Part shown: positions 56,447 through 64,000 of the stretch, one piece after another | Layout: each line of letters starts with the position of its first letter | Position numbering within the stretch: the stretch's first letter is position 1 | Source: Thermoplasmata archaeon | GTDB taxonomy: Archaea; Thermoplasmatota; Thermoplasmata; Lutacidiplasmatales; UBA184 | Reading direction: 5' to 3' | Assembly: GCA_021801925.1 (NCBI GenBank) | Contig: JAKABH010000002.1 | Span: 4,560 to 68,559, forward strand | Length of the DNA stretch: 64,000 nt | The notes under the pieces: model-generated | Databases searched by the model: none | Told to the model about the DNA's origin: nothing | The model's input: the letters and a program-made list of their open reading frames with translations, nothing else | Program-made: the position numbers and the translations under genes

Positions 56447-56562
56447 GTCGGAGCCGGGAGGCGGCCGGTTCCTTATCCGTTGCCGTTCCCGCCCGACCCG
56501 CCGAGGTTCGCCACCCTCGTCTCCGTCCGACTCCCCCGCCGACCGGAGCGGCCCAGGGGAGG

Positions 56563-56648
56563 CGCTGAGGGGGAGATTTGAACTCCCGCGACGGAAACCG
56601 TCACCAGATCTCGAATCTGGCGCCTTGGCCGAGCTAGGCTACCTCAGC
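56563..56648 (-). tRNA. tRNA-Ser (anticodon CGA), class II with long variable arm
   Basis: Hand-folded. Acceptor GCTGAGG/CCTCAGC, D stem GCCT/AGGC, anticodon stem CCAGA/TCTGG with loop TTCGAGA, variable-arm stem GACGG/CCGTC, T arm GGGAG-TTCAAAT-CTCCC. 86 nt. Confidence 0.9.
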
Positions 56649-56849
56649 ACCCTATCGCGGGGAGTTGCGCCCGCTTTTAGCGATTTGCGGGCAGCCGAGC
56701 TCCGCCGGACTCGCCGCGTGCGACCGAACATTCGCCGCTCTCGCCCGCCGTACTTGTCTCGACTCGAACCTCCGACCGACTGCCCAACCGGGTGAGTTCC
56801 TGACTCCTGCGTAAATAGGTTGTTATCCGGGATCCCTCTGCCTCTCTGC

Positions 56850-57888
56850 ATGGGCCGATGGGCACAGCGCCATCGGGGTGCCGCCACCCTCGAAGAACGT
56901 CGATTGACGGGCCTCGCGCTCCTGCACTCCGGCCACTCGCAGGCCGACGTCGCTCGCCGCCTCGGAGTTACTCCCGTAGCGGTGTGTCACTGGAAGAGTG
57001 CCCTCGACGAAGGCGCCCCGCGGCGCTGCGCGCCATCCCTCGGCCCGGCCGGCCCCCGCTGGTGTCGAAGGACCACCAAGCCGCTCTCCCCGAGATGCTC
57101 GCGAAGGGAGCGCTCACCTACGGGTTCTCCACCGACCTCTGGACGAACCCACGCATCGTGAAGGTCGCCGAGGCCCAGTGGGGAGTTCGGTACTCCGAGA
57201 CAGCGATGTGGCGGATGCTCAAGCGCCACGGACTCTCCTGGCAGCGGCCTCGGAGGCAGGCCCGAGAGAAGGACCTCCGGGCCGTCTACAACTGGCGCCG
57301 TCGCTCCTGGCCTCGCTCTAAAAAAAACCCCGACACCGAAGAGCCGTAGTGGTCTTCGTGGACGAGAGTGGGTTCTCTCTCATCCCCTATGTCGCGAAGA
57401 CCTGGGCCCCCGTTGGCCAAACCCCGGTGCAGATCCACCAAGGACTGTGTCCGAAGTTCTCGGCGATCAGCGGCGTGACTCCCCCATGGAAGCTCTACAT
57501 CCAGGTCCACAAGGACACGATCGCCACCGACCAGCCTGTGGAGTTCCTCCAGCATCTCTTGCGACACATTCGCCGGCGACCCATCATGGTCTTCTGGGAC
57601 GGAGGTCGTCCCCACCACTCTGACGAGACTCGCGCCTTCCTCCGAGCCCACCCTCGGATCGAGGCGCAGCGGTTTCCGGGCTACAGCCCCGAGCTCAACC
57701 CCGATGAGTAGGTCTGGAGGCACCTGAAGAACCACGAACTCGCCAGCTACGCTCCGCACGACGTGAAGGAACTGAGCCGGGAACTCCGGCGTGCGGTCGT
57801 TCGAATGCGGGTCCGGCCCAAGCTGCTCTGTTCGTTCGTCGCGGCGACTCACCTCTACGATTCAGCACCTGACGACGGTGCGGGATGA
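56850..57888 (+). pseudogene. IS630-family transposase, disrupted (one indel, one A8-run frame change, one in-frame TAG)
   Basis: The HTH (frame of 56820) joins the frame of 56858 near 57015-57030 (...LDEG|PAALRAIPRPGRPPL). The frame changes again at A8 57320-57327 into VVFVDESGF. TAG at 57709-57711 lies inside ...SPELNPDE*VWRHLKN. Confidence 0.8.
57320..57327 (+). repeat. A8 homopolymer (slippery run) inside the IS630 remnant
   Basis: The only long homopolymer I saw in the window. A -1 slip here joins ...WPRSKKK to PRHRRAVVVFVDESGF. Confidence 0.85.
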
Positions 57889-58388
57889 GACGAACGGAGG
57901 ATTCTCCTCGGTAAGTGTTAAGCTATTTCGTCCGGCATCAGTAACTCGGTCCGGGCCGCCGCCCGGCCATCCGCGAGGTGACTCCGAGCTCTTGGAGAAG
58001 GTCTGGGGGCTACTGGAGGAACGTCACCTTGACTGGTCGCAAATCGCCCAGAACCGCCACGTCCCGGCAAGTAGCTGCCGAAAGTGGGTCTCCTACGCAG
58101 CTCGGGCTAAGGCGGTTACAGCCAACGGCCCGGTGACCAGGGCCTCCCCGAAGGGAGCCTGAAGACTGACCGCGGCGCCTCAATGGCGAAGGCTATTTGC
58201 CGCGGCCGTTGGGCCGGCCACCCCCCTACTGCCTAGACCCTCAGGAAGGCGGTCCGAGCGCGTGGAGAAACACGGCGGAGCCCGTCAAGGGGGTCGATTT
58301 GGGAGAAGCCAAACTTCTCAGATGAAGCGTGTTACTTCGAACTACACGAGCGACACTATCAAGTAGCAAAGCATCCGTGGCATCCCGC

Positions 58389-58712
58389 ATGAAGGGTGTC
58401 CTCTCTGTCCTGGGTAAGAAGAGGGCTCTGGACGTCTTGGACTTCCTTGAGTCCGAACCGCGGGGCGCACGATTCATCGACGTCCAACGATGGGCGGTGA
58501 ACGGGGTTCCATCGGTCACGACAGGCCTACTCAAGGACCTCAGGCAGTGCGGCGCAGTCGTCCGCGATGGCTCCGGGGACCTGCCCAGATACCGGATCAC
58601 CGACGCTGGAAAGGAGGCACGAACACATCTACACCAAGCCCTCGCCGCGCTGCATGGTGCGCGAGACAAGCGCCAGCCTCGTCAGGATTTGAGGAGAAGA
58701 ATGGGAGGGTGA
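58389..58712 (+). CDS. Small winged-helix DNA-binding protein
   Basis: LGKKRALDVLDFLESEPRGARFIDVQR...LKDLRQCGAVVRD...RYRITDAG follows a wHTH (HxlR/MarR-like) pattern. Trimmed to ATG 58389. Confidence 0.6.
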   Translation: MKGVLSVLGKKRALDVLDFLESEPRGARFIDVQRWAVNGVPSVTTGLLKDLRQCGAVVRDGSGDLPRYRITDAGKEARTHLHQALAALHGARDKRQPRQDLRRRMGG

Positions 58713-59494
58713 ACTGCGTGAAGGACCAGTACTTCGGTGACGTGAACGATTATCGCAAGTTCGGGCTTCTAAGGGGGTTGACCAGTGAGAGAGACCTTCG
58801 GCTGTCTATTTGCTGGGCACTGACCCGCTCAGATGGGCGGACTGACGGGTCCAAAACTCAGTACCTCGAGAACCCGAGCATCTGGAGGAGATTCGATCCC
58901 GAGCTCTTTGCCTTCCTTCGGCAACAGGTGGTCGATCGCGGCGACCGCCGAGTGGGTGCCATCGAAGGCACGCGAGTGCTTGGAGACTGCAACTTTTTCA
59001 GCGAGACCCTCCCGCGAGAGGAAGCGGCTCGAGACGGCTACTTCGAGAGACTTTGCGACCTTGCCGCCCGCACCGATCTCGTGTTCTTCGACCCAGACAA
59101 TGGCCTAGGTGTCAAGTCGACACCGAGAGGATGCCCGAACTCTGAGAAGTACGTGTACCCGTCGGAACTGGCGTCCGTCTTCTCACTGGGACCATCGATT
59201 CTCCTCTACCAACATTTCCCGAGGAGGCCACGAACCCAGTTCACCCAATGGTTGGCACGCTCACTTTGTGAGTTGCTTGGAAGCGAACGGGCGGTGGCCT
59301 TCATTACACCCCACGTGCTCTTCCTCCTCGTGCCGAACCGTCGTCACTGGGCCGCACTGAGGGCGGGCGCCGAGCGGGTCGCTGGGAGATGGAGCGGCCA
59401 GATTGGAGTGGTCCACCTCAGTCGACTTGGGAATCTCCGCCCGGTCCCATTCGATGCCTTTGGGCCCCGCGAAGCCGCCCCCGTTGCGGCGTGA
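58709..59494 (+). CDS. Hypothetical protein with GDVNDYRKFGLL and FFDPDNG motifs
   Basis: GTG 58709 overlaps the wHTH stop (GTGA). 261 aa, protein-like composition. No family recognised with confidence. Confidence 0.6.
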   Translation: MNCVKDQYFGDVNDYRKFGLLRGLTSERDLRLSICWALTRSDGRTDGSKTQYLENPSIWRRFDPELFAFLRQQVVDRGDRRVGAIEGTRVLGDCNFFSETLPREEAARDGYFERLCDLAARTDLVFFDPDNGLGVKSTPRGCPNSEKYVYPSELASVFSLGPSILLYQHFPRRPRTQFTQWLARSLCELLGSERAVAFITPHVLFLLVPNRRHWAALRAGAERVAGRWSGQIGVVHLSRLGNLRPVPFDAFGPREAAPVAA

Positions 59495-59505
59495 GATCGC
59501 CGGGC

Positions 59506-60189
59506 CTATGCGCTCCAGAGCGGTCGAACGAGGCTTGATGGCTGTTTCCACCCTGCGCAGACTCTAACCTCCGCGGACGCCGCAACCGATAGCACGTTTT
59601 CCACCCCCCGGTCCACCGCCACCTCGACGACCTGTCCGGATTCAGGGAAGCGATCTATTGCCTGGAACGTGTCCGCCCCCCTCGGTGGCGGATCCTCCCC
59701 GTTAGCGCGCCTGAAAGTGCTGCCGGAGTTCATCGAGGTGAGCGCGATCCGGGCGGAGCACTGATCGAGCAGCAACCGCGTGTTCACCTTCAGGACGACG
59801 TGTTCAAAACCTCTGTAGAACTTCGCTCCGAGAAGCATCTCGAGCCGAGACCACTCCGCCCAGAAGAACACCTTGGCATTGATCAAGCGATACCAGTCCT
59901 CCACAGACATCCCCTGCTCCAGCAGGGGGCGGAGCTCGGCCGGGGGCATGGGTTGCTGGTCCCGGATCCAAGCAGGGGGAAGGCCTGTCTTCTCGATCTT
60001 GACCATCGCTGGCCTCCACCTGGACTCGATCAGCTCCCTGCGCCCTCCAGTGTATCCGTAGAGGTCAAGCAATGCGGAAGTGCTGAGGAGCCCCCTGGCC
60101 TGTATCCCGGGCCAGTTCGGGACCTCGGCCATATGGTAGAGAGTCGGGTAGCGCTCTATCAGCACCCCAATCCTCAAGCTCCCTCCCAA
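59506..60189 (-). CDS. Putative ADP-ribosyltransferase-fold protein (DarT/DUF4433- or DUF7002-like)
   Basis: N-terminal LYHMAEVPNWPGIQARGLLSTSALLDL and C-terminal QVVEVAVDRGV resemble the H...E elements of DarT-type ARTs as I remember them. Start is TTG 60189 (16-nt overlap) or GTG 60165. Confidence 0.55.
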   Translation of the reverse strand: MGGSLRIGVLIERYPTLYHMAEVPNWPGIQARGLLSTSALLDLYGYTGGRRELIESRWRPAMVKIEKTGLPPAWIRDQQPMPPAELRPLLEQGMSVEDWYRLINAKVFFWAEWSRLEMLLGAKFYRGFEHVVLKVNTRLLLDQCSARIALTSMNSGSTFRRANGEDPPPRGADTFQAIDRFPESGQVVEVAVDRGVENVLSVAASAEVRVCAGWKQPSSLVRPLWSA

Positions 60190-61784
60190 GCTCTCCGGTC
60201 GATGACGCTGCGGTGGTTGAACCCGACTGCCACCATTGTCACGGGAACTCCCGCGACGCGGCCCACCTCGTCGATGAACTGTATGGTCTCCTTGGAGAGT
60301 TGGTCGAAGCGGACGGCCCTCCTATTTCCCGAGGTGATGTAGTCAGCAAACGTCAGCGCGATGTCGGTCGCGCCGTTCAGGAGCGAGGCTCGATGCAGGA
60401 GAGCCCAATCGAACTCGCCGACCCTCCTGCGGCGATTCGTGGTCGAAGTTCGCTCGTGCTGTCTGAGTTCATCGACCGGAATTCCAGACCGCCTGGAGAT
60501 CTCGGCCCAGCCGATCTCGTTCAGTGGACCTGACGTGCCTCCCTCGGGACTCTGCACTCGGATAGGGTAGGTTCGGACGACCATCAGAACGCGACGTACC
60601 CACTTCGGTGGTATGCCAGCCTCGGCAAGACACCCTCCTGCCGTCGTGTCGCGGCTCGTGACGAACGGAAACTCCCCGTGGTAGATGCTCAGCCCGGTCC
60701 CCTGGGTCCCTTCAAGGAGGACGCGCCTGCCGTTGAGGTAGGCATCCTCGAGCTGTGTGAAGGCGTCTCCTAGAAAGGGCTTGAGCTCCGGGACCGCCCC
60801 AGCCAGACGGGTCGTGGAGTTTCGCCCCATTATTCGGCGCGCGGTCGCAGCGCCGGTGCCGCTCCCCGTCGAGCCGATATCTTTCTTCAGCTTCAGCTCG
60901 TCATGGATGTCCTTGGGGTCGATTACCATCGCATTGCGGTCGATGACGAGCCGTTGGGCGTCCACCTGACAGTCGGCGATCTCCTGGAGCAGCTTTGGGA
61001 TGTTGAGGACGGCCCCCGGGCCAATCAGCAGCTTCGCTAGGGGGTTGTACCTTGTCCCAGAAGGAAGCTGGTGGTGCGTGTACGGTGGATTGCCGAAGAC
61101 CTTGTGCCCCGCGTTTGGCCCCCCCACGCGGACCAACAGGTCGTACTCGCGCGCGATGTAGGATGCGATTTGGCCCTTTCCCTCGCTACCGAATTGTCCG
61201 CCGACGACGACGTCCACGTACCCTAGCCCCTTGTGGGGGTGCGCCCGGATCAGGCTGGCGGCGCGAGCGGCGACATCCGCCTCGGTACAACGGTCCGTGT
61301 CGATGACCGCGTCCGCGAGGTCCCGGAGCGTCTCCACTTGGGCCTCCGTGGGATCGGCCTTCGCCTGGGCATATGTAATGGCCATGTCCTTCGATTGCTG
61401 ACGGCGCTTAGCAAAACGCATGGCGAGGACCTCAGGAGGGGCCGTCAGGTGGATGTGTACGACTTTGGACCCAAACGCCTCCCGGAGGGCCCTCACTTGG
61501 TTCTCTATCCGCACGGCGTCCACCACGATGCACGTGCCTCTGTCCTCTTCGCCCAACCATCGGTAGAGCTCCTGCACCACCCATCTTCCCCCGGTCGACT
61601 TGTCCAGGTCCGCGCCTCGTTTCTGGAGCAGCCTTCGGTCGGAGATTGGCACCCGCATGATCCGCTTCGTTAGAGACTCCTTAGTCCTGAACACCGACAT
61701 CTGGTAGCGGTCCTCCAGGCGGCGGGCAAGCGTCGACTTGCCGGAGTAAATCTGTCCCGATAGGGCGATGATTCGGTCAGCCAC
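60174..61784 (-). CDS. Fusion protein: N-terminal P-loop kinase-like domain + C-terminal adenylosuccinate synthetase (PurA)-like domain
   Basis: Kinase P-loop ALSGQIYSGKSTLA (res 7-20). AdSS motifs GGQFGSEGKGQ, GGPNAGH, GSTGSGTGAATARR, LLEGTQGTGLSIYHGEFPFVTSRDTTAGG, TSTTNRRRRVGEFD. GTG start overlaps the upstream stop by 8 nt. Confidence 0.85.
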   Translation of the reverse strand: MADRIIALSGQIYSGKSTLARRLEDRYQMSVFRTKESLTKRIMRVPISDRRLLQKRGADLDKSTGGRWVVQELYRWLGEEDRGTCIVVDAVRIENQVRALREAFGSKVVHIHLTAPPEVLAMRFAKRRQQSKDMAITYAQAKADPTEAQVETLRDLADAVIDTDRCTEADVAARAASLIRAHPHKGLGYVDVVVGGQFGSEGKGQIASYIAREYDLLVRVGGPNAGHKVFGNPPYTHHQLPSGTRYNPLAKLLIGPGAVLNIPKLLQEIADCQVDAQRLVIDRNAMVIDPKDIHDELKLKKDIGSTGSGTGAATARRIMGRNSTTRLAGAVPELKPFLGDAFTQLEDAYLNGRRVLLEGTQGTGLSIYHGEFPFVTSRDTTAGGCLAEAGIPPKWVRRVLMVVRTYPIRVQSPEGGTSGPLNEIGWAEISRRSGIPVDELRQHERTSTTNRRRRVGEFDWALLHRASLLNGATDIALTFADYITSGNRRAVRFDQLSKETIQFIDEVGRVAGVPVTMVAVGFNHRSVIDRRAWEGA

Positions 61785-63159
61785 CGGACCAGTCCTCCGA
61801 GAGGCAGCTCTGGCGCTCCCCCTTCGCAGACGTTGCGCGAGAAGTCCTGGCCGGCGGCGTGTACACCGTCACCGGGACACCCCGGCTTGATAGATGCTCG
61901 TCAATCAGCTCGGAGATGACGCTCCAGTTTCCCCCAGCCATACCCGCCCCGATGCGCGGCATGTGAATGCTCGCTCCCGCCCGGAGCGCCTCATCGCGAA
62001 CCGTTGCGAGGCAGGCGTTGAGGGCGGCGTACCTGATTCTGGGTTTGTCGCTGGGACCGTACCCATGCTGGGCCACCATGCTCGCGATGGATAGTCCCTC
62101 AGAGACTTGGGCGATCCGGGTCCTCCCGAGCGACAGGTTGCGGTGACCCTCGCTCGCCCAGCGCCGAAAGTCTTCCTGCGCTTGAGGGAACTTCCCTCTG
62201 ACCGCCTTCGAGAACGCCCCTCCCCAGTTCGCGGTCTTGTCGTTCACGACCTGGGCGACTATTTTTGGGCCTGCCCCGCGGGGTTGCAGGGCGTCCCCAC
62301 GGAGCTCTAGAGTGGTGCTGGGCCGGTCTTTCGAGGGCACCGTCATGCGGCAGAGGCCCAACACTCTGGGAAGGGCTTTCCCGGGATAGGGGGGAAGGCC
62401 CACGCACTCCCAATAGAGAGAGGGTACCACTCCTTTGGAGGGCTCGCGCCCTTTGGCGGTGCAACCGACGGCAATGCACTGGGAGAACACCGAGCCCTCT
62501 AGGAGTGCCCCAGGGCCGAACGGAGGTGCCCCCGCACGGGAAGTGACCACGTAGTCTGCCCGGAAGGTTCGCTCTCCGACCCCTTCGTTCACTCGAGAAG
62601 CCACGGCCACGGCGCACGGGTAGCGGGCCGAGCGAACGAGGCGTAGGGCCGCCGCCTCTACCGAGACCTGGCACGCCTCCTGGATCTTGAGAAGGGAGTC
62701 GATGGTGGGCGGAGCGGCGGGATCCACCGCGAAACCGGTGGGCATGAGGATCTCCGACGCCGCTATGTTGCACAGCATCTCGAGTTCCCAGTCGTCGCCC
62801 CGGGGGTTCGCCTCTCTGTTGCGAACCGTCTGGAGATGGTCGTCGAACAGCGTGTGCGCTATCTCATGGGCGAGAGAGAAGCGGATCCTGTTCCGGGGCC
62901 GGTTCGGATTGAACTCGATCTCTGGATGCTGGCCTCGGGGCACAATCTTCGCGTCCAGGACATCCTCCTTGGGGACCACGGAGATGCCGAGGAGCTCCGC
63001 GAGGCGGAACGGGTCGAACGGAGGCCCCTCCCACCCCCTTTGTACTGCCTCAAGTACGACGTCTCTGGCCCTCCGAGTCACGGCCACGACAGGGTCTCGA
63101 CCCTCGGCCAGCCTCTTCACGCTGGGGTTGGTCCAAACAACGGTAGTTTGTGGCGCCAT
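61777..63159 (-). CDS. Fusion protein: ImmA/IrrE-type Zn metallopeptidase + middle region + C-terminal Macro domain
   Basis: FSLAHEIAHTLF (HExxH, 62854-62868) with downstream ELEMLCNIAASEILMP. Macro motifs IVAQVVNDKTANWGGAFSKAV and IHMPRIGAGMAGGNW (about 61855-62307). Confidence 0.85.
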   Translation of the reverse strand: MAPQTTVVWTNPSVKRLAEGRDPVVAVTRRARDVVLEAVQRGWEGPPFDPFRLAELLGISVVPKEDVLDAKIVPRGQHPEIEFNPNRPRNRIRFSLAHEIAHTLFDDHLQTVRNREANPRGDDWELEMLCNIAASEILMPTGFAVDPAAPPTIDSLLKIQEACQVSVEAAALRLVRSARYPCAVAVASRVNEGVGERTFRADYVVTSRAGAPPFGPGALLEGSVFSQCIAVGCTAKGREPSKGVVPSLYWECVGLPPYPGKALPRVLGLCRMTVPSKDRPSTTLELRGDALQPRGAGPKIVAQVVNDKTANWGGAFSKAVRGKFPQAQEDFRRWASEGHRNLSLGRTRIAQVSEGLSIASMVAQHGYGPSDKPRIRYAALNACLATVRDEALRAGASIHMPRIGAGMAGGNWSVISELIDEHLSSRGVPVTVYTPPARTSRATSAKGERQSCLSEDWSGG

Positions 63160-63528: not shown

Positions 63529-63729
63529 TTATCGCCGTCCGCGGCGGCTTCCGCTCCCTGAGAAGAAGTTGATAACGATTACCACCGCTGTCAGCCCGAA
63601 GACCGCAGCGACGACTTCCACGATGTAGCCTGTGAACTCAAGGAGGACTGACGGGAGGAAGAACGCCACGAAAATGAAACCTACAATCAATACGAGAAGC
63701 ACCGTGACGATTCCGTCCCACTTGTTCAT
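63529..63729 (-). CDS. Possible small two-TM membrane protein (66 aa)
   Basis: IVTVLLVLIVGFIFVAFFL and VVAAVFGLTAVVIVINFF, with a basic C-terminus. AT-richer codon usage like the surrounding island. Confidence 0.4.
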   Translation of the reverse strand: MNKWDGIVTVLLVLIVGFIFVAFFLPSVLLEFTGYIVEVVAAVFGLTAVVIVINFFSGSGSRRGRR

Positions 63730-64000
63730 TCAGTTGCTCCCATCGGGCCGATTTGGGGCTGCTGGAACAGGGGGACGGCGGTCATGACGTGAGCTCGGCG
63801 GTCGAAGCGGGCAGGCGCTCGTCCTTCCACCAGCGGCGCACGACCCGTCTGGCTCTCCATGCTCGCAAATCGCCGGTGTAGGTCACGTCCATGTGTTTTC
63901 GGTTAACGACCCCTTCCACTCGAGCCGAGTAGGCTCATGAGGGGCGTCCCACGTCAGTGCGATGTCGCATCCGTCGAAGAAGACACGAGTCCGTCACCGC

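Follow-up and report, generated by a model that had tools for sequence, protein, structure and literature searches.

A DUF7002 protein with a predicted DarT-like ADP-ribosyltransferase fold in a putative writer/eraser conflict cassette of archaea and bacteria

ADP-ribosylation of nucleic acids in bacteria is represented by few examples, namely DarT1, DarT2, pierisin-like enzymes and CmdT. In the DarTG systems, the DarT writer is accompanied by a cognate antitoxin acting as eraser, either DarG, whose macrodomain is joined to a C-terminal DarT-binding domain, or NADAR. The peptidases IrrE (PprI) and CapP, which are paired with the repressors DdrO and CapH, are activated by single-stranded DNA (ssDNA). 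SCO6735, a stand-alone macrodomain protein, strips DarT-made thymidine-linked ADP-ribose from DNA, thereby rescuing cells from DarT, and also strips uracil-linked ADP-ribose from RNA (PMC9411070, PMC13036486); guanine-linked ADP-ribose is reversed by NADAR enzymes, not by macrodomains (PMC13036486). Phage PurZ, the N6-succino-2-amino-2'-deoxyadenylate synthase, carries a Ser in 100% of 147 sequences at the position where 99% of PurA proteins have Asp13 (PMC12884076). Here we describe a gene of the DUF7002 family located at 59506–60189 on the minus strand of a 64,000-nucleotide stretch (hereafter the window) from a Thermoplasmata archaeon, where it is the last gene of a three-gene cassette that brings these themes together: gene 1 encodes an M78 peptidase fused to a macrodomain, and gene 2 a P-loop kinase fused to an adenylosuccinate synthetase (AdSS) of PurZ-like type. 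Judged by its predicted structure, the DUF7002 protein is most likely an NAD+-dependent, DarT-like enzyme of the ADP-ribosyltransferase (ART) fold, and we assign a probability of about 0.6 to its being the writer of a nucleotide-centred writer/eraser conflict cassette.

With DarTG1 and DarTG2 the locus shares the nearest predicted fold, an N-terminal Y-H...G-L-S motif, a late, putatively catalytic Glu, a macrodomain of the ALC1/TARG1/DarG class in the operon, and a mobile, defence-associated setting. In contrast to DarT (PF14487), the DUF7002 protein has no membership in that sequence profile; in contrast to DarG, the cassette macrodomain has Gln where DarG has Lys, and it is fused to an IrrE/CapP module rather than to a C-terminal DarT-binding domain. 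Moreover, unlike in DarTG, a kinase/PurZ-like gene separates the presumed writer from the presumed eraser, many DUF7002 genes stand alone, and no cognate DarG or NADAR antitoxin adjoins DUF7002. The preliminary description of this DNA, made from its letters alone, had likened the arrangement to the writer/eraser logic of DarTG; the macrodomain in the operon agrees with that view, whereas the peptidase fusion, the PurZ-like protein as the tighter partner and the solo occurrence of about 40% of the copies do not.

Comparable mixtures of likeness and difference mark the two partner genes. Gene 2 resembles PurZ and PurZ0 in its short archaeal-type AdSS fold and its Asp13-to-Ser change, and some cassettes carry dUTPase/DCD-like and HD (YfbR-like) helpers, much as the PurZ of Z-phages is accompanied by MazZ, DatZ and DutZ (PMC12884076). 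Unlike phage PurZ, gene 2 resides in cells or on plasmids, has a P-loop kinase fused to it, does not reach the NCBIfam PurZ cut-off, and comes together with an ART-fold protein and a macrodomain. Like CapP of CapP/CapH and IrrE of IrrE(PprI)/DdrO, gene 1 possesses the full peptidase–helix-turn-helix (HTH)–GAF module with an invariant HExxH and Glu, but it has no conserved adjacent repressor gene and is fused to a macrodomain. That macrodomain is close to SCO6735 and BT1257 (35–39% identity, template-modelling scores (TM-scores) of 0.87–0.91, the Gln85 equivalent kept), although those are stand-alone proteins and it forms the C-terminal part of a 460-residue peptidase fusion within a cassette. 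What is novel about the locus, in our view, is that a known kind of conflict system, of ART and macrodomain, here has a writer of a new family and two modules new to it; no description of this gene combination, and no paper naming DUF7002, was found in the literature library searched.

The DUF7002 protein: reading frame, predicted fold and conserved residues

The gene had initially been delimited as an open reading frame (ORF) of 227 residues, counted from the first in-frame TTG (60189), and it is present in the window as described. Two strings had been quoted from its translation, YPTLYHMAEVPNWPGIQARGLLSTSALLDLYG and FPESGQVVEVAVDRGVENVLSV; both occur in the ORF, but the latter is not the end of the protein, as 29 residues follow it. 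From the sequence, the likelier start codon is the second in-frame TTG at 60177, which gives a protein of 223 residues; we prefer it because it is preceded by GGGAGGG, overlaps the stop codon of the upstream gene as TTGA (the junction reads GCTTGGGAGGGAGCTTGAGG), and yields the length of 223 residues under which the protein collection lists this protein. The protein matches Pfam DUF7002 (PF22531) over model positions 1–193 of 195 with 184 bits (E=3e-54) against a gathering cut-off of 27 bits, so that the earlier comparison with DUF7002 proteins proves to be full-length family membership. The same model matches all 47 aligned homologues, the protein collection holds 429 homologues, and 483 stretches in a species-genome collection of 185,579 genomes encode a relative. 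Given this score and the hundreds of homologues, the ORF is a genuine gene and not a chance frame. NCBIfam and PADLOC contain no DUF7002 model.

An AlphaFold2 model built from the 47 homologues is of high confidence (pLDDT 96.7, pTM 0.92), and nearly all of its Foldseek matches in the PDB are proteins of the ART fold, which bears out the fold assignment of the preliminary description. The top match is Escherichia coli C7 DarT1 with NAD+ (8BAQ; E=3.6e-5, probability 1.0, TM-scores 0.44/0.47), followed by the DarT proteins of Mycobacterium tuberculosis, Thermosipho and Thermus (7YK3, 7OMU, 7OMV, 7OMW and 7OMY are listed); the list also includes the A subunits of cholera, heat-labile and pertussis-type toxins and an Rhs ART toxin. 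Tpt1/KptA proteins appear lower down (8TFI, 8TG4, 1WFX and 9LD4; E 0.28–0.45, TM-scores 0.24–0.39), and a viral structure library gave weak matches only, among them a phage 'RNA 2'-phosphotransferase'.

Among 88 homologues, twelve residues are invariant (H19, R51, R59, D77, N104, F108, F109, N154, G156, R170, F175 and E189), and R76 is kept in 87. Two of the twelve are the residues for which an NAD+-binding and a catalytic role had been proposed at the outset, namely the His of YHMAE and the Glu of VVEVAV. His19 (codon CAT, 60133–60135, minus strand) lies in the beta-1 motif L-Y-H-M-A-E, and Glu189 (codon at 59623–59625, minus strand) in the strand V-V-E-V-A-V. We obtained residue correspondences by hhalign against a small alignment of seven DarT sequences taken from genomes, a comparison used for this purpose and not as proof of homology. 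It places E189 on the invariant catalytic Glu of the DarT AE-LV motif and the N154-S-G of DUF7002 on the invariant Asn of the DarT motif (S/T)DGNAA. The N-terminal L-Y-H-M-A-E-x6-I-x3-G-L-L-S of DUF7002 resembles the DarT start Y-H-F-T-D-I-K-N-I-Q-S-I-L-x3-L-x-S, and on the strength of this motif resemblance we propose His19 as the equivalent of the DarT His.

The first assignment had left the protein between DarT and Tpt1. By fold, DarT is its nearest relative, but sequence profiles place it in neither family: among the profiles named for comparison, that of DUF7002 matched, whereas those of DarT (PF14487) and Tpt1/KptA (PF01885) were silent, the latter for the window protein and for the 47 family members alike. 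The residue preceding H19 is Tyr, Phe or Trp in all 88 homologues and never Arg. Tpt1 has an Arg-His dyad as part of an Arg-His-Arg-Arg catalytic tetrad. Transferases to nucleophiles, rather than Tpt1, typically have an invariant Glu at the catalytic position of ARTs. As DUF7002 has such a Glu and, without exception, an aromatic residue in front of the His, DarT fits it better than Tpt1 does. We nevertheless rejected DUF7002 as a member of the DarT family, as both profile membership and partnership with DarG or NADAR fail, and likewise rejected it as a Tpt1, there being no PF01885 match, no Arg before the His, and weak fold matches.

Partner genes and distribution of the cassette

Gene 1 (61777–63159, minus strand; 460 residues) matches Peptidase_M78 (1e-10) and, very weakly, Macro in Pfam and nothing else there, and capP in PADLOC (1.3e-21); PADLOC models of RosmerTA-type antitoxins (RmrA) also match its M78 part. 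A model of the whole protein reached pLDDT 87.5. For residues ~1–290, Foldseek recovered Deinococcus PprI with ssDNA (8SLN, 1.2e-11), IrrE (3DTE) and Thauera CapP (7T5T, 4.5e-8) over about 270–290 columns, corresponding to a complete peptidase–HTH–GAF module; we therefore annotate residues ~1–289 (62293–63159, minus strand) as an IrrE/PprI/CapP-type module with an M78 zinc peptidase, an HTH and a GAF-like domain. Its zinc site, H98-E99-x-x-H102 with E127, is invariant among homologues. At the loop position of the 'cysteine switch' (mechanism: bioRxiv 10.64898/2026.05.16.725639), 18 of 33 homologues have Cys and the window protein has His.

The remainder of gene 1, residues ~290–437 (61849–62292, minus strand), is a macrodomain of the SCO6735/BT1257 subclass within the ALC1/TARG1/DarG class. 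A profile built from the C-terminal 150 residues of gene 1 in 31 cassettes matched BT1257 (2AFC, 7e-47), SCO6735 (5E3B, 8e-43), ALC1 (2e-18), TARG1 (2e-11) and DarG (8e-7) in the PDB, and Foldseek gave TM-scores of 0.91 to BT1257 (2FG1) and 0.87 to SCO6735 (5E3B). The ADP-ribose-1''-phosphate phosphatase Poa1p was matched as well (profile 7e-8, Foldseek 1.4e-8). The macro fold, the P-R-I-G-x-G-x-x-G-G loop and a catalytic Gln, the features of the SCO6735 subclass, are all found. The invariant Gln364, in A-Q-H-G-Y-G, aligns with residue 105 of the 5E3B chain, which we take to be SCO6735 Gln85 on the assumption that the 20-residue pET15b tag is part of that chain. Mutation of Gln85 abolishes the activity of SCO6735 (PMC9411070). 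The macrodomain partner anticipated in the preliminary description is thus real and of the DarG/TARG1/ALC1 class, but it is not DarG and does not adjoin DUF7002.

Between gene 1 and DUF7002 lies gene 2 (60174–61784, minus strand; 536 residues). Its residues 1–185 (61230–61784, minus strand) form a P-loop nucleotide-kinase-like domain that matches Pfam AAA_18 (5e-9) and AAA_33 (3e-5), the archaeal (d)CMP kinase (1.6e-5) and the N-terminal region of the anti-phage dCTP deaminase (4e-4) in NCBIfam, and dCTPase in PADLOC (1e-6). Residues ~186–536 (60177–61229, minus strand) are AdSS-like, align end to end with the AdSS of Pyrococcus horikoshii (5K7X, E=4e-51), which is of the short archaeal type, and keep the PurA motifs NAGH, TGSG, EGTQG and RRR. 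The P-loop reads GSEGKG, compared with GDEGKG in PurA and QFGSTGKG in phage PurZ (6FKO), and its Ser is kept in at least 97% of 45 cassette homologues. Gene 2 falls below the cut-offs of both the NCBIfam PurZ model (NF038379; 207 bits, cut-off 300) and the archaeal PurA model (276 bits, cut-off 368), and the same genome encodes a separate, canonical PurA scoring 461 bits. The probable substrate of gene 2 is a deoxypurine nucleotide, for instance dGMP.

In the window, the order is gene 1, gene 2 and DUF7002, all on the minus strand, with an overlap of 8 nt between genes 1 and 2 and of 16 or 4 nt, according to the start chosen, between gene 2 and DUF7002. We surveyed the surroundings of DUF7002 at 80 species-genome loci with 6-kb flanks, including four cut by contig ends. 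The full set of three genes, with order and orientation unchanged, was found at 37 of the 80 loci, kinase-AdSS and DUF7002 without the M78-Macro gene at seven, and DUF7002 alone at 32; counting the 76 loci with enough flank, 32 were solo and the macro gene was absent from 39. The genes of the cassette overlap or abut across loci. Six metagenomic or genomic contigs were additionally looked up by exact protein, of which five carried the cassette and the sixth a solo copy. Some cassettes are in decay: in Hoeflea sp. (L004/L025) a DDE transposase lies inside the M78-Macro gene, at L075 about 2.2 kb is inserted between the Macro and kinase genes, and at L070 there is an insertion within the kinase-AdSS gene.

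Full cassettes extend across Chloroflexota, Acidobacteriota, Actinomycetota, Planctomycetota, Verrucomicrobiota, Alpha- and Gammaproteobacteria and Binatota among bacteria, and Thermoplasmata and Nitrososphaerota among archaea. In the DUF7002 tree, the nearest neighbour of the window copy is a metagenome contig (L001), and two of its three nearest neighbours are metagenome-assembled genomes of Thermoplasmata. DUF7002 was also recovered on 24 plasmids or megaplasmids of Rhizobium, Agrobacterium, Sinorhizobium, Ralstonia and others, beside an annotated 'adenylosuccinate synthetase' in at least five of the 15 listed, and in none of 50,697 phage records. At five sampled loci, the neighbours include Kiwa (KwaAB), type I restriction-modification, EcoRII with Vsr and a Shedu SduA_C protein, in addition to a DCD-like gene, a ResIII/restriction endonuclease, an integrase and transposases. 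DCD/dUTPase-like genes and YfbR-like HD 5'-deoxynucleotidases flank the genes on Agrobacterium rubi plasmid pW2_73_2 and in a clade of loci with the kinase-AdSS and DUF7002 pair. The variant operon of pW2_73_2 (L100, 16740–21599) comprises a DCD/dUTPase-like gene, a class I S-adenosylmethionine-dependent methyltransferase, kinase-AdSS (annotated there as 'adenylosuccinate synthetase'), DUF7002 and a convergent YfbR-like HD gene, and near it lies a pair encoding a UvrD-helicase and a PD-(D/E)XK nuclease. It is likely that the cassette constitutes a new system of antiviral defence or conflict in the two domains.

For the solo copies, we looked for a conserved neighbour and found none. In three loci of a solo clade of Acetobacteraceae (L003, L020, L040 and others), whose catalytic residues are intact, DUF7002 directly follows an ftsY-like gene, which it overlaps in L003; in the genomes of this clade that were tested, no cassette partner occurs anywhere.

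Proposed working and competing explanations

In the working we propose, DUF7002 would act as the writer, transferring ADP-ribose from NAD+ to a phosphate-rich acceptor: His19 on beta-1 would help bind NAD+, Glu189 on the late strand would stabilise the oxocarbenium intermediate, and the invariant R51, R59, R76 and R170 would hold the phosphate-rich substrate. Gene 1 would serve as both eraser and sensor, its macrodomain removing DUF7002 marks in the resting, uninfected cell until viral infection or DNA damage is sensed as ssDNA by the IrrE/CapP module, which would shift the balance through proteolysis. Gene 2 would meanwhile alter the deoxypurine or deoxynucleotide pool, with the outcome that viral nucleic acid is ADP-ribosylated, or replication is starved or poisoned. 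We infer that the target of DUF7002 is most likely a nucleic-acid base of the T/U type or a nucleotide. A T/U-type base is favoured because the eraser is of the SCO6735 class; a nucleotide acceptor stays in play because of the tight link to a PurZ-like enzyme, and a purine 2-amino group because the best structural match is the guanine-specific DarT1. Taken as a whole, the picture of a previously undescribed three-gene immune system is offered tentatively, as a possible elaboration that we would not expect to hold in every part. In it, a cellular PurZ-type enzyme, with the 2-aminoadenine-like deoxynucleotide chemistry so far known from Z-genome phages alone, would cooperate with the DarT-like family, and a macrodomain eraser wired to an ssDNA-sensing IrrE/CapP peptidase would restrain both; upon infection, the deoxypurine pool would be remodelled and ADP-ribose attached to nucleotides or to the nucleic acid of the virus.

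Several observations weigh against the writer/eraser reading. The TM-scores of the predicted model are modest, at 0.44–0.47 to DarT and 0.3–0.47 more widely, and sequence comparison misses the relationship: a phmmer search of the single protein against PDB sequences found nothing, the family profile found nothing significant there (DarT1 appears only at E=0.7), PF14487 (DarT/DUF4433) is matched neither by the protein at E<=1 nor by the 47 members at E<=10, a Pfam scan of those members at E<=10 touches no other ART family, and the hhalign comparison with DarT is marginal (E=0.027, probability 1.8%). The base that would be modified is ambiguous, given that DarT1 modifies guanine and that its marks are removed by NADAR (PMC13036486). 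The defence-island setting is based on five inspected loci. Upstream of gene 1, no small ORF that could encode a repressor of the CapH/DdrO/XRE type is conserved across the 37 loci, so that the cassette looks self-contained. Lastly, the solo copies keep every invariant residue, and the 12 solo genomes that we searched have no PurZ-like fusion, their one AdSS homologue being the housekeeping PurA (35–38% identity). None of these 12 genomes yielded a homologue of the M78-Macro protein, a query that matches its homologues in cassette loci at 1e-40 to 1e-80. The intact solo copies and the genome-wide absence of the partners speak against DUF7002 being an obligate, constitutively lethal toxin that depends on the macrodomain of gene 1. 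The protein can persist outside the cassette; it is either active under certain conditions only or useful in its own right.

These solo copies also bear directly on the alternative in which DUF7002 is a constitutive DarT-type toxin with a dedicated macrodomain antitoxin (a type II/IV pair) and the PurZ-like gene is a passenger. The DarT-like fold, the DarG/SCO6735 class of the macrodomain with its catalytic Gln kept, and the match of RmrA antitoxin models to the M78 part would all suit such a pair. Yet 32 solo and seven macro-less loci among 76 have their catalytic residues intact, a homologue of the macro protein is missing from twelve solo genomes, kinase-AdSS accompanies DUF7002 more constantly than the macro gene does and in every case separates the two, and a maximum-likelihood tree intermingles solo with cassette copies, forcing at least five switches. 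A classical toxin-antitoxin reading of the DarTG type was rejected on the solo copies, and we consider the pair decidedly improbable. Alternatively, the acceptor could be a small molecule, with DUF7002 ADP-ribosylating a nucleotide made or bound by the kinase-PurZ-like enzyme (for instance of the succino- or 2-amino-deoxyadenylate type) to give a poison or a signal that the macrodomain degrades or senses. This would explain why kinase-AdSS lies directly upstream, overlapping or abutting, at 45 of the 80 loci, seven of them without a macro gene, and it accords with the accessory deoxynucleotide enzymes (DCD/dUTPase-like and YfbR-like), the P-loop Ser of gene 2 that is a hallmark of PurZ, and four invariant Arg suited to a nucleotide substrate. 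We regard it as unlikely all the same, since intact solo DUF7002 occurs in genomes without a PurZ-like enzyme, DNA is the substrate of the DarTs, its nearest neighbours by fold, and what is known of the macrodomain subclass concerns ADP-ribose linked to the bases of polymers.

A different chemistry, akin to that of Tpt1/KptA, would place ADP-ribose on a phosphate, be it the 2'- or 5'-phosphate of RNA or DNA or one added by the kinase, and leave the macrodomain to process the product as Poa1p does. Tpt1/KptA proteins are among the fold matches, as is the phage 'RNA 2'-phosphotransferase' of the viral library; the macro profile matches Poa1p, invariant Arg residues are many, and the cassette includes a kinase. 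Set against these are Tpt1 fold matches far weaker than those of DarT, the silence of PF01885, the constant aromatic residue before the His in place of the Arg-His dyad, and the invariant Glu at the ART catalytic position, which is not a Tpt1 feature; little credence can be given to this chemistry. Even less can be given to the view that DUF7002 has the shape of an ART only and works as an NAD+ glycohydrolase that depletes NAD+, or as a non-catalytic nucleotide-binding protein. Its appeal is that nothing but a predicted fold, at TM-scores below 0.5, connects the protein to ARTs while sequence profiles are silent, but twelve invariant residues, including the His and the Glu at their expected places, speak against it, and a conserved erasing macrodomain argues for transferred rather than free ADP-ribose. 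The reading of DUF7002 as an ART-fold writer within a writer/eraser, nucleotide-centred cassette is the one we retain.

Genomic island, archaeal host and implications

The cassette lies in a low-GC island that begins at a tRNA-Ser(CGA) gene (56561–56648, minus strand; ARAGORN and Rfam), where the GC fraction drops from 0.74 to 0.62, and that runs from 56650 to the window end at 64000 with GC values of 0.62–0.67 against about 0.74 outside. The island looks like a horizontal acquisition integrated at the tRNA of an archaeal genome. Immediately past the tRNA gene, in the region 56820–57711, are two transposase-like ORFs in different frames (56858–57349 and 57349–57711, plus strand), which on reading of their translations look like an IS630/Tc1-like element with a frameshift.

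Convergent with the cassette is an ORF of unassigned function at 58490–59494 (plus strand), recovered by clustering of flanking genes, with a conserved core from near QYFGDVNDYRK. Its family also adjoins the cassette at six other fetched loci (L001:8882-9640, L008:4366-5142, L010:6672-7538, L015:1621-2376, L019:6705-7422 and L064:6669-7379), just downstream of it, and is convergent at four of the six as well as in the window. The motifs QYFGD-NDYRK and FFDPDNG are kept in the family, and the ORF has no match in Pfam, NCBIfam or PADLOC; within one sub-lineage it may serve as an accessory, outside the core. A small ORF at 58329–58712 (plus strand), with a weak match to an IclR-type HTH (E=1e-3), overlaps its 5' extension and may be a real upstream gene, provided that the ORF at 58490–59494 starts later. 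At the other end of the cassette, 370 nt upstream of gene 1, a hydrophobic ORF of 66 residues (63529–63729, minus strand) has two membrane spans as judged by eye, and is not conserved in other cassettes.

The host genome comprises 1.57 Mb at 94.7% completeness and about 72% GC. Its contigs encode an archaeal signal recognition particle (SRP) RNA that scores 138 bits, above the Rfam gathering score, and a search of the genome for transfer-messenger RNA (tmRNA) found no genuine one, just a tRNA-like sub-threshold match. Because of the archaeal SRP RNA and the absence of a genuine tmRNA, we conclude that the host is an archaeon. A scan of the operon for sigma-70 promoters and terminators gave nothing informative, as expected of such a host.

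If DUF7002 does belong to the ART superfamily beside DarT, it would constitute a new writer family for nucleic-acid ADP-ribosylation, marked by a conserved His/Glu pair and provided with a catalytically intact eraser partner. The cassette unites themes that have been studied separately, namely reversible ADP-ribosylation, DNA-damage-sensing peptidases and PurZ-type deoxynucleotide chemistry, and represents a candidate antiviral system common to bacteria and archaea that is directly testable; plasmid copies exist in cultured, non-hazardous strains, among them Agrobacterium rubi and Rhizobium. It would also point to a possible cellular role for the PurZ enzyme type, which has been thought to be confined to phages.

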